Position numbers and translations under genes: made by a program. From positions 1-29,602 of the forward strand of contig JAGCZK010000038.1 of the NCBI GenBank assembly GCA_017960065.1: a stretch of 29,602 nt of DNA. Reading direction: 5' to 3'. This DNA is from Paludibacteraceae bacterium (lineage in GTDB: Bacteria; Bacteroidota; Bacteroidia; Bacteroidales; Paludibacteraceae). The notes below the pieces were generated by a model. It saw only the letters and a program-made list of their open reading frames with translations, was not told the origin of the DNA and ran no database searches. Positions 22,712-25,147 of this stretch are shown piece after piece. Positions within the stretch are counted from its first letter, which is position 1. Each line of letters begins with the position of its first letter.

Positions 22712-22743
22712 CAAAAATACGATTTCCACACATAAAAACCAAA
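22712..22743 (-). promoter_or_regulatory. Bacteroidota promoter (TTTG-N20-TATTTTTG) for the ispG operon
   Basis: Plus-strand caaaaata at 22712-22719 and caaa at 22740-22743. Confidence 0.7.
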
Positions 22744-22791: not shown

Positions 22792-22815
22792 CACAAAAAC
22801 ACAAAACCCTGGGAC
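22792..22815 (+). repeat. Left copy of a 24-bp imperfect direct repeat flanking the Abi cassette
   Basis: cacaaaaacacaaaaccctgggac versus cacgaaaacacaaaactcccggac at 23662-23685: 20/24 identical, no gaps. Confidence 0.5.
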
Positions 22816-23483
22816 TAAAGATTGTCTATCTTTCGCAATACCGCATCCGGGAATATGTCTAATCCATAAAACAATTGACATTCTGAATACCCGAGAAATT
22901 GAACATATTTGAATAGCAACGCATAGTTGTCCCTCACGAATGCCGTACTTTTTGTTCCAAACTCATCAAAACAAATAGCCTCGTGATGGGCAATGCGATT
23001 ACGAAATGCCTTTATCGTCCTTAACTCGTTATAAATTGCCCTTTGTCCAAGACCATGTGCCTTTGACGGGAATATATTCAACAACGACTGTCCTCCCCGC
23101 AAAAAAGGAACCTTTGTAAACATATAAATCCAAAACCCCAGCGAAACAGAAGAAACAACTCTATCATTGGTGTATCGGCCTGAATTCTTCAAATCTGAAA
23201 TCACATTCAAGACGGTACTTTTTTGAGGATAAAACTCTAACATTCCGCCTTGATTCAATTGATGGAGAATCCAATCGGTATCTGAAAAATAAGATTTGTA
23301 ATGCTCACTGATTGAATTTCTGAGGACAACTTCGAAGATATTCAATATCCCATAAAATTTCTGACAAAGTTTCACATTGAAGCGATATAAGGCAAGAGCA
23401 GCCAACTTGTCTCCACCACAGGATTGAAGATATTTGTCAAGCCTCGCCCGGGAAAACGCTTTTTCATAGTCGGTGTATTTCAT
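22815..23483 (-). CDS. Abi-like (Abi_2/AbiD-AbiF type) HEPN-domain protein, putative RNase toxin or phage-defence effector
   Basis: Contains SRARLDKY, ALYRFNVKL, FEVVLRNSI, SLGFW and the HEPN Rx4H motif FRNRIAHHE (codons at 22986-23003). It is AT-rich compared with its neighbours. Confidence 0.85.
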   Translation of the reverse strand: MKYTDYEKAFSRARLDKYLQSCGGDKLAALALYRFNVKLCQKFYGILNIFEVVLRNSISEHYKSYFSDTDWILHQLNQGGMLEFYPQKSTVLNVISDLKNSGRYTNDRVVSSVSLGFWIYMFTKVPFLRGGQSLLNIFPSKAHGLGQRAIYNELRTIKAFRNRIAHHEAICFDEFGTKSTAFVRDNYALLFKYVQFLGYSECQLFYGLDIFPDAVLRKIDNL

Positions 23484-23504
23484 TGTGATTTTTCTTCATA
23501 AAAA

Positions 23505-23536
23505 ATTGTAGAATTAAGAAAATGTCTGTACTTTTG
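23505..23536 (+). promoter_or_regulatory. Bacteroidota promoter (TTG-N20-TACTTTTG) antisense to the Abi leader
   Basis: attg at 23505-23508 and tacttttg at 23529-23536. No ORF follows it, only a structured segment. Confidence 0.7.
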
Positions 23537-23540
23537 CGAT

Positions 23541-23600
23541 GTAATCCCCGTGCGTCCCTGAGTTCTCAAACGCGCGGGTTTAGTCTTTTATGGAGGGACC
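23541..23600 (+). ncRNA. Putative small structured RNA, candidate Abi antitoxin; ends approximate
   Basis: 9-bp stem cccgtgcgt/acgcgcggg (23547-23555 with 23570-23578) includes a G-U pair that works only on the + strand. It has an asymmetric ccc/a internal loop, an inner tga-gttc-tca hairpin and a U-rich tail, and sits directly downstream of a consensus promoter. Confidence 0.6.
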
Positions 23601-23644
23601 TGAACCTTACACATATACGGGTTAAGAATTAAGATATTGCCTCG

Positions 23645-23675
23645 CAAATTTACAATTTCGACACGAAAACACAAA
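23645..23675 (-). promoter_or_regulatory. Bacteroidota promoter (TTTG-N19-TAAATTTG) for the Abi gene
   Basis: Plus-strand caaattta at 23645-23652 and caaa at 23672-23675. This implies a ~150-nt 5' leader. Confidence 0.75.
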
Positions 23676-23685
23676 ACTCCCGGAC
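23662..23685 (+). repeat. Right copy of the 24-bp imperfect direct repeat flanking the Abi cassette
   Basis: 20/24 match to 22792-22815. It contains the -33 box of the Abi promoter. Confidence 0.5.
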
Positions 23686-23694
23686 GACAGATTG

Positions 23695-23727
23695 TTTGAC
23701 TCCGCCTCAAAAAGCGCAATACTTTTG
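23695..23727 (+). promoter_or_regulatory. Bacteroidota promoter (TTTG-N21-TACTTTTG) for the 23822 operon
   Basis: tttg at 23695-23698 and tacttttg at 23720-23727. Confidence 0.6.
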
Positions 23728-23821
23728 CAAAAATTTCCGGTTTGCGCGCGCATATTCACTTTTTTTTTGCTATCTTGCGCTTTATTAGCGACAACATAAA
23801 AAACGAAACTCTCCTAACAAC

Positions 23822-25147
23822 ATGAAGAAACGCACATTACTCGTGGCTTTGCTGGGCCTGTGCTGTCTGGCAAGCGCTCAGAATCCGCCTGTCGGCATCG
23901 AAAACTTCGGGTGGTGGGACTCCGAATACCCCACCATCACCTGGGGCAGCGGCATCCGAACCTCCGACATCAAGGCCGTACAGTATATTTTACAGCTGAC
24001 CGGCGTGCAGCCCGCCGGCTCGCCACAGTACTACGAATGGCAATGGTCGGACGCCAACCTGCCCTACGGCTCGCGGCTCGAGTCGGTTGACGGCCAAAGC
24101 GCCCAAGGCATGCGTGCCGCCACCGCCCGCGCCATGCTGGCCGAACGGGGCGACCACCAGGTCGGCTACACCCGTACCGACGGTGTCAAACGCATCGCCA
24201 ACCTCACGGCCGCAGAGCTGCCGATATGGATGCAGGCGGTCGGGTTCAACCCCATGTACTGCAGCTGGAACAGCAAACGGCGCGAGATTCCTGACAACAT
24301 CGTCATCCGCACCGACAAAGACGTCAACTGGCACAACTTCAAAACCTACGACTACCTGATTTTGAGCGAAGACGTGCTGGCCGACCGCGAACTGATGGAA
24401 ATCATCGGCGACAACTTCCGGCGCATGGGCATGACCCGCGACGAGGTCAACCCCGACATCCTGATTACCCTGACCAAAGACGCCAACAAGAGTGTGGAAT
24501 ACACCTACGTCCCCGAACAGGTGCAACACGTGCAGACGGGCAGTTCAAGCACACCCATCTACGGCTGGAAGGGCGCCTACCTGGGCAGTATCACCACCAA
24601 CGACTACAAAACCGTAAAGACAGGCGGTTACACCCAAAAGACCTCCACCACCGACGCCTACCTCGAAGTGTCGATTTTGGAAGCCGCCCGCATGGGGCAA
24701 CGCACCCTGCCCATGATTTGGCAAATGAAATACAACTACCACAACAACACCGACTCGAACGTGGACGCCCTGTACCGCAAGGCCGTTGACTACGTGCGCC
24801 ATCCGCTCGACAGCAAGGCGTTGGAGTACTACGAATCGGCAACCCCCAACAACAAGAAGTTCTACGAAAACTACTCGCTGCTCAACTTCGGCATTGTCAC
24901 CGACATGCAGAACATCGTGCGCGGCGTGGACCAGCGCTCGGACGTGGTGCGTGAGAGCGGTTTGCAGAAAGGGGACAAGATCGTTTCGGTCAAATGTACC
25001 GAAAAACGGCACATCAGCAGAGGAAGAGACTTCTACGGCACCATTACGGTGGAGCGTAACGGAAGCACCCGGACGCTCAAGTTCAAAAACTGCCGCCCGA
25101 CCAACTCCCACTCACTGACTTTCAGCAAATTTTTCTATATCCTTTAG
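23822..25147 (+). CDS. Exported hypothetical protein with DUF4136-like core and probable PDZ-like domains
   Basis: Signal peptide ending LASA. NPDILITL...YLEVSILEA...IWQ resembles DUF4136. FGIV...SGLQKGDKIVSV is PDZ-like, and GSRLESVDGQS suggests a second degenerate PDZ. Confidence 0.65.
   Translation: MKKRTLLVALLGLCCLASAQNPPVGIENFGWWDSEYPTITWGSGIRTSDIKAVQYILQLTGVQPAGSPQYYEWQWSDANLPYGSRLESVDGQSAQGMRAATARAMLAERGDHQVGYTRTDGVKRIANLTAAELPIWMQAVGFNPMYCSWNSKRREIPDNIVIRTDKDVNWHNFKTYDYLILSEDVLADRELMEIIGDNFRRMGMTRDEVNPDILITLTKDANKSVEYTYVPEQVQHVQTGSSSTPIYGWKGAYLGSITTNDYKTVKTGGYTQKTSTTDAYLEVSILEAARMGQRTLPMIWQMKYNYHNNTDSNVDALYRKAVDYVRHPLDSKALEYYESATPNNKKFYENYSLLNFGIVTDMQNIVRGVDQRSDVVRESGLQKGDKIVSVKCTEKRHISRGRDFYGTITVERNGSTRTLKFKNCRPTNSHSLTFSKFFYIL

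Follow-up and report, generated by a model that had tools for sequence, protein, structure and literature searches.

In type I toxin-antitoxin systems with a 5′ overlap, such as hok/sok, a short antisense RNA is made from inside the leader of the toxin mRNA, and the two promoters face each other. A different use of a small RNA is seen in the AbiF toxin/RNA-antidote system, which appears in the accounts on which we draw as one first worked out in 2025; among its members, PbAbiF-AbiFr of a Prevotellaceae bacterium (PDB 8VZ6; Zilberzwige-Tal et al., Cell 2025) is known to us through three of them (PMC12373285, PMC12737573, PMC13064643). One hairpin RNA is bound per PbAbiF monomer (PMC12737573), and both PbAbiF and the C. 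difficile AbiF are bound and neutralised by their RNA (PMC12373285, PMC12737573). In the C. difficile phage phi027, this RNA, RCd22, contains two Rfam abiF motifs and is encoded on the abiF strand, upstream of the toxin gene, with which it is co-transcribed; it binds the toxin, AbiFCd, and also lowers abiF transcription in cis (PMC12373285).

For comparison we fetched canonical Bacteroidales Abi_2 genes of ~300 aa, the product of one of which matches 8VZ6 at E 3e-65. At most of these loci a -7 box, a hairpin, a U-run and the ATG follow each other in that order, all on the toxin's strand, and the gathering score of Rfam abiF (RF03085) was passed in 3 of the 13 canonical loci searched. The locus described here belongs to a Paludibacteraceae bacterium and lies in a stretch of 29,602 nucleotides, all of which was analysed and which we call the window. 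Its main features are:

22815-23483, minus strand: abi, 222 aa, candidate AbiF-fold HEPN RNase toxin with the Rx4H motif R161-N-R-I-A-H166
23506-23536, plus strand: small-RNA promoter, with a -33 TTG at 23506-23508, a 20-nt spacer and the -7 box TACTTTTG at 23529-23536; 81 of 89 homologous RNA genes have a box at this position
23645-23675, minus strand: distal toxin-strand promoter of abi, with a -33 TTTG at 23675..23672, a 19-nt spacer and the -7 box TAAATTTG at 23652..23645; predicted abi start near 23638
23484-23638, minus strand: predicted abi 5′ leader of ~155 nt, deduced from the promoter positions, if the distal promoter is used
23509-23516, minus strand: decayed proximal toxin-strand -7 box, reading TAATTCTA where the nearest relatives have TAAATTTG

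The window locus has in common with PbAbiF-AbiFr an Abi_2 toxin candidate of the HEPN type with a shared predicted fold (Z 12.8), the bacterial order, and a single neighbouring hairpin RNA that is conserved and has an unpaired C-rich element, for which an RNase-blocking logic is presumed. It differs in the size of the protein (222 aa versus 300 aa), in its distant sequence, and in the RNA, which falls outside Rfam abiF: at E <= 10, RF03085 matched neither the intergenic region of the window nor any of 15 loci of its clade. Moreover, in PbAbiF-like Bacteroidales loci the RNA is upstream on the toxin's strand, whereas in the window it is on the opposite strand and has a separate promoter. AbiFCd-RCd22 offers a tested precedent for two brakes in one RNA (PMC12373285); its cis brake is premature termination on a shared transcript, whereas that of the window would consist of convergent transcription and antisense pairing by a single inverted hairpin. 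As in the type III systems ToxIN, CptIN and TenpIN, which have anti-phage uses, a small structured RNA is presumed to inhibit an endoribonuclease toxin, but the window has neither a tandem repeat array nor a shared promoter-terminator transcript, and its toxin candidate has a HEPN fold instead of the ToxN/AbiQ fold of the ToxIN-type toxins. The likeness to hok/sok, a short antisense RNA from within the toxin leader and facing promoters, would hold if the distal promoter is used; unlike the small membrane peptides that serve as type I toxins, however, the window protein is a 222-aa soluble, helical HEPN RNase candidate, and leader overlap is absent in many members of its family.

The abi product matches Pfam Abi_2 (PF07751) at E 2.3e-8, with 35 bits against a cut-off of 25.6, and in PADLOC it matches AbiD (9e-6) and PD-T4-5 (7e-9); no NCBIfam match was found. 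Residues R161, N162, R163 and H166 are invariant in the clade alignment, and the motif R161-N-R-I-A-H166 occurs in 13 clade members. The AlphaFold (AF2) model has a pLDDT of 92, and the best solved match of the predicted fold is PbAbiF with its bound ncRNA (8vz6_A). With the predicted model as query, Foldseek gave a probability of 1.0 and a TM of 0.61, and VIA gave Z 12.8 with an rmsd of 3.4 Å over 202 aa; the next match reached 6.2, and later ones (Z 5-6) were mostly other HEPN proteins (Swt1, Csm6, Cas13d). Kinship in sequence is remote (profile E 0.0076), and a single-sequence PDB search missed 8VZ6, which was found only by profile and fold searches. On the strength of its predicted model, the partner protein is a candidate AbiF-fold HEPN toxin, so that the Abi_2 domain and the predicted fold bear out the choice of the abi product as toxin partner in the initial annotation.

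That annotation had also claimed a minus-strand and a plus-strand promoter pointing at each other about 110 nt apart. Direct reading and a pattern scan both placed the two promoters exactly at the positions given above, with their -7 boxes facing each other and 108 nt between inner edges, and both fit the Bacteroidota -33/-7 consensus. Over both strands the window holds 16 TAnnTTTG boxes, compared with 10.2 ± 3.2 in shuffled sequence, and three of the 16 sit within 23529-23727. The distal promoter is the sole consensus box on the minus strand between abi and the next gene, and the predicted ~155-nt abi leader spans, in complementary form, the entire small RNA together with its promoter. The claimed complementarity of the small RNA to the abi leader thus covers the whole RNA, conditional on the minus-strand promoter firing. 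No terminator-like U-run was seen after the hairpin on the minus strand.

As blastn did not find conservation of the intergenic DNA in 60 relatives, relatives were reached through the protein, by gathering Abi homologues from 400 genomes of the order and from one-genome-per-species contigs. Opposite abi, the homologue loci share an element that consists of a TAnnTTTG box, ~7 nt, a hairpin and a U-run, in that order. The hairpin stem varies and the motif GUCCCUG ... CAAAC is fixed, the conserved parts of the hairpin being a single-stranded CCC and an upper stem closed by UG/CA. A covariance model built from ten copies, R1, found 89 copies, all of them beside Abi homologues. The window carries no tandem repeat array of the RNA, and its copy is the only one in the 85%-complete genome. 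Its parts, all on the plus strand, are:

23536-23594: small RNA gene, as spanned by the covariance model (R1 match of 61.8 bits, E 6e-13)
~23543 to ~23590: predicted RNA transcript of ~50 nt
23547-23555 / 23570-23578: P1 stem of 9 bp
23556-23558: single-stranded CCC in an internal loop, opposite A23569
23559-23561 / 23566-23568: P2 stem, with the loop GUUC
23579-23589: U-run

Among 78 aligned copies, 92.4% of stem cells were paired, and 141 double changes were counted as against 42 ± 5 in shuffles; when partner columns were slid as a control, pairing fell to 18-45%. Since G-U pairs outnumber A-C pairs across the family (55 versus 9), the folded strand is the plus strand of the window, and the family count thereby upholds what had first been read from a single window pair, T23551-G23574 in the stem 23547-23555 / 23570-23578. 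In 81 of the 89 RNA copies an own -7 box ends at the model start, with a TTTG at N19-20 from that box in 42 of the 72 scored, compared with 4.7% at random positions. The RNA still lies opposite abi's strand even in L062, from a MAG labelled Chlorobium, and in L083 and L087, from MAGs labelled Acidobacteria. Judged by covariation and by these promoter and terminator signals, the plus-strand RNA is a conserved, structured gene with its own promoter and terminator.

Within the window no Rfam family reached its gathering score, a search of 23400-23900 at E <= 10 returned noise only, and no tRNA or tmRNA remnant was found. A generic terminator scan did not call the hairpin, probably because the scan is limited to simple stems closed by a loop of 3-8 nt and a large internal loop interrupts this hairpin. 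A 36-aa open reading frame at 23522-23632 (plus strand) was considered as the product and rejected: its start lies upstream of the predicted transcription start, and the changes seen in the region are compensatory ones in the stem and indels in the loop. Separately, the sequence AGGGAC at 23595-23600, just past the terminator, is complementary to the loop GUCCCU (23554-23559); homology with L038, the nearest relative, ends before this point, and the sequence is not conserved there.

The position of the RNA gene relative to abi was not the same throughout the family. It is upstream on the opposite strand in 78 of the 89 copies, downstream on abi's strand with a promoter of its own in 8, and downstream on the opposite strand in 3, of which L074 and L097 overlap the abi stop codon. 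On the Abi tree, the upstream-opposite layout runs throughout an 84-protein clade that contains every R1-positive locus on the tree, and each of the two downstream layouts forms one clade. In the small clade with L074:2192-2252 (minus strand) and L097:2191-2251 (minus strand), the overlap is with the 3′ end of the abi mRNA and not with its leader.

Several variants were observed beside these. Tandem pairs of hairpin genes occur at L087:60-176 (minus strand), in an Acidobacteria-labelled MAG, and at L095:2294-2418 (plus strand), in a Prevotella MAG, and would represent a small step toward a repeat array. A sister clade, L012-L016 (Abi of 224-267 aa), has a different divergent RNA on the opposite strand, at most about 250 nt upstream of abi, with a -7 box of its own and two hairpins, one bearing AAGCCUCU ... 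ACGUAA and the next a distinct terminator hairpin; the first of these hairpins recalls the Rfam abiF loop, yet Rfam abiF gave no match at E <= 10. Also, in L067, L071, L078, L093 and L104 (Chitinophagales, Saprospiraceae, Lewinellaceae), a variant hairpin, ..CCUGG.UGCCGCUG.., was recognised by eye upstream of abi on the opposite strand. As R1 does not report this hairpin at E <= 0.01, the RNA family extends beyond the model.

The 77 loci with an upstream-opposite RNA were scored for toxin-strand -7 boxes under a strict consensus, with the following outcome:

19 of 77 loci: proximal box, between the RNA start and the ATG, back-to-back with the RNA promoter, leaders of 11-47 nt
33 of 77 loci: distal box, no more than 110 nt beyond the 3′ end of the RNA, face-to-face with the RNA promoter
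3 of 77 loci: both boxes
28 of 77 loci: neither box

On the control strand of the same distal DNA, boxes were found in 8 of 77 loci, where ~7 are expected from background. More than half of the distal boxes (18 of 34) sit within 10 nt of the end of the RNA model, and in the Muribaculaceae/Prevotella/Porphyromonadaceae clade the distal box is the last conserved element of the module. Proximal and distal boxes seldom occur together (odds ratio 0.175, p 0.007, an indicative figure in which kin are counted as independent). Thus the face-to-face layout, as far as promoter motifs tell, is one that recurs in many relatives, and for about two fifths of the loci the only apparent route of toxin transcription leads across the antitoxin gene. 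On the Abi tree the distal box comes out as a labile trait, with 18 changes for 28 rows. A -33 TTTG accompanies 8 of 53 toxin-strand promoters versus 42 of 72 RNA promoters, a pattern that would fit a weak toxin promoter and a strong antitoxin promoter. Set against the canonical Bacteroidales loci sampled and RCd22, an inverted, autonomous RNA gene, often with convergent promoters, appears to be a new AbiF layout.

In the window, ispG and a lipoprotein gene flank abi and its RNA, which form a low-GC module (32-48%, versus about 60-70% in the neighbours). Homology to the nearest relatives spans the stretch from the ATG to the RNA's U-run and ends at ~23592, so that the distal promoter at 23645-23675 sits in non-conserved flank, ~55 nt beyond the conserved module; this flank is homologous to no relative, and the distal box may therefore be fortuitous or inherited from the insertion site. 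L038, the closest of the aligned relatives (70% protein identity), has, like L033-36 and L042, a proximal TAAATTTG that abuts the RNA's -33 in a back-to-back arrangement, and proximal boxes were found in L033-36, L038, L040, L042, L050, L051, L054 and L057. In the window this box, TAATTCTA (23516..23509), has lost two of six consensus positions. L038 additionally carries a distal box, an independent one, 28 nt beyond the RNA. Two further promoters belong to the neighbouring genes:

23695-23727, plus strand: TTTG-N21-TACTTTTG, probably the promoter of the lipoprotein gene at 23822
22712-22719, minus strand: TATTTTTG box between abi and the conserved part of ispG, likely ispG's own promoter

The first of these stands back-to-back with the distal abi promoter; the lipoprotein gene itself (23822-25147) has a weak DUF4136 match. 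Because the TATTTTTG box likely serves ispG, abi need not be co-transcribed with ispG, and for the same reason the distal promoter would have no target other than abi. As to ispG, its listed open reading frame starts with a TTG at 22742, the IspG proteins of relatives align only from residue 18-21, and the listed 5′ end takes in the TATTTTTG box (22719..22712); translation probably starts further downstream. An empty-site comparison for dating the distal box found the ispG-lipoprotein adjacency in 0 of 30 relatives within 1.5 kb and did not recover the pre-insertion state. From the arrangement of boxes, the distal promoter is probably the working promoter of abi in the window, acquired locally and not brought by the module.

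Furthermore, a pattern scan of viral contigs (IMG/VR) gave 58 stretches, of which 19 pass R1. No abi was present in the fetched flanks of 18 of these 19 copies, about 15 of the 18 having at least 1.7 kb on both sides. The phage copies sit among genes for major head proteins, terminases, helicases and methyltransferases, and most of the hairpins have no TAnnTTTG box of their own. Examples of lone phage hairpins are:

L162:7299-7354, plus strand: on a 108-kb contig, directly after the major head protein gene
L213:3119-3175, minus strand
L187:7598-7658, plus strand
L170:11405-11465, plus strand
L190:12542-12594, plus strand

Their occurrence apart from abi would fit a role as anti-AbiF decoy RNAs, for which they are candidates.

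Our leading reading, held tentatively, is that of an AbiF-type toxin/RNA-antitoxin module in an inverted layout, with protein binding in trans and, in the window, a second brake in cis. The strong promoter at 23506-23536 (plus strand) would make the ~50-nt hairpin RNA, which by analogy with the studied AbiF pairs most likely binds the HEPN RNase encoded at 22815-23483 (minus strand) and keeps it inactive; when a phage shuts off host transcription, the short RNA would decay and the RNase would be freed. As the proximal toxin promoter has apparently decayed, abi would be driven only from the consensus promoter beyond the RNA gene, so that its transcription would have to cross the active, stronger and opposing RNA promoter, with polymerase collision as a result, and the ~155-nt leader could pair with the whole small RNA to form a duplex. 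Collision and duplex together would amount to a second brake on toxin synthesis, acting in cis. For this locus we infer all of these, namely transcription, RNA-protein binding, toxicity and the antisense or collision effect.

Within this scheme, protein binding in trans is likely the core mechanism, in view of the predicted fold, the fixed loop with its covarying stems, the independence of position and the lone phage copies, although it is carried over from tested relatives. RNA-protein binding is an extrapolation here, because the RNA has no Rfam abiF match and the sequence kinship of the protein to PbAbiF is remote. Extra brakes by antisense pairing and by polymerase collision are plausible and would differ from lineage to lineage. 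That the RNA can work without leader overlap is implied by the back-to-back loci, by the clade with a same-strand downstream RNA and by the lone phage copies, and the second-brake layer would be optional, since many relatives have no overlap. The hybrid design put forward in the initial annotation, in which one RNA both binds the protein and silences its gene, thus gains from the fold of the protein partner and from the recurrent layout, but it loses antisense overlap as its core: the window's distal box is in non-conserved flank, the nearest relatives are back-to-back without overlap, in one clade the RNA gene follows abi on the same strand under a promoter of its own, and in phages the hairpin occurs alone, with no abi.

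There is a substantial chance, all the same, that the RNA is purely a trans-acting, type III-like antitoxin and that the head-on geometry is incidental. The distal box would then be a leftover of the insertion site, either unused or used without regulatory effect, and perhaps one half of an old divergent pair with the lipoprotein gene, with whose promoter (23695-23727) it stands back-to-back. The end of the conserved module at the RNA's U-run, with the distal box in unrelated flank, is what such a history would leave, and the back-to-back promoters of the nearest relatives, the clade with a same-strand downstream RNA under its own promoter and the lone hairpins in phage genomes agree with it. 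Against it, distal boxes across the family are about four times as frequent on the toxin strand as on the control strand, are concentrated near the end of the RNA and stand in for proximal boxes; in the window itself the proximal box has lost two of six consensus positions and the distal promoter has the full -33/-7 consensus. Should the distal promoter fire, moreover, convergent transcription over an active promoter would hardly be without effect.

A stronger version of the hybrid, in which both layers have been selected, the RNA blocking the protein (type III) and silencing the toxin mRNA by collision or antisense pairing (type I), and in which phages counter with loop-only decoys, seems to us possible but doubtful.

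It is improbable that abi is silent or decaying here, with a broken proximal promoter, a non-working distal box and an RNA gene that merely survives. The proximal TAATTCTA, where relatives have TAAATTTG, and the solitary state of the module as a low-GC insert (32-48% versus about 60-70% GC) could be read in this way, but the open reading frame is intact, with all family-invariant residues including the HEPN motif, the predicted model folds with a pLDDT of 92, and a full-consensus promoter is directed at the gene.

Very improbable is a purely antisense, type I-like system in which the RNA pairs with the abi leader and never touches the protein. The window geometry and that of 33 of 77 relatives resemble hok/sok, but the back-to-back loci and the same-strand downstream loci have no overlap, and the phage copies have unrelated stems. 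Stems that covary freely around a fixed CCC..UG/CA are the pattern of a protein-recognised hairpin and not of a pairing surface. In addition, the toxin candidate is a 222-aa AbiF-fold HEPN protein whose solved or tested relatives are neutralised by RNA binding (PMC12373285). Least credible of all is a hairpin with no gene of its own that serves only as terminator, insulator or leader attenuator of neighbouring genes, which would account for the likeness of hairpin and U-run to an intrinsic terminator and for the phage L162 copy directly after a major head gene, but not for an own consensus promoter in 81 of 89 copies, a conserved loop motif, an RNA that travels with Abi in three different positions, or its constancy on the RNA strand in Chlorobium- (L062) and Acidobacteria-labelled (L083, L087) MAGs.

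The subfamily is widespread in Bacteroidota, and many of the MAGs that carry it come from gut or rumen. Cas13 and its crRNA have been proposed to descend from AbiF and its RNA, and the wiring of the RNA and toxin genes therefore bears on the origin of guide-RNA loci. The hairpin constitutes an RNA family absent from Rfam, the phage-borne lone copies of which are candidate anti-defence decoys. In this family the antitoxin RNA can come from an independent gene that has a strong promoter and a terminator to itself and is placed divergently from, convergently with or downstream of the toxin gene. If the overlap regulates, a single RNA would act by both type I and type III logic.
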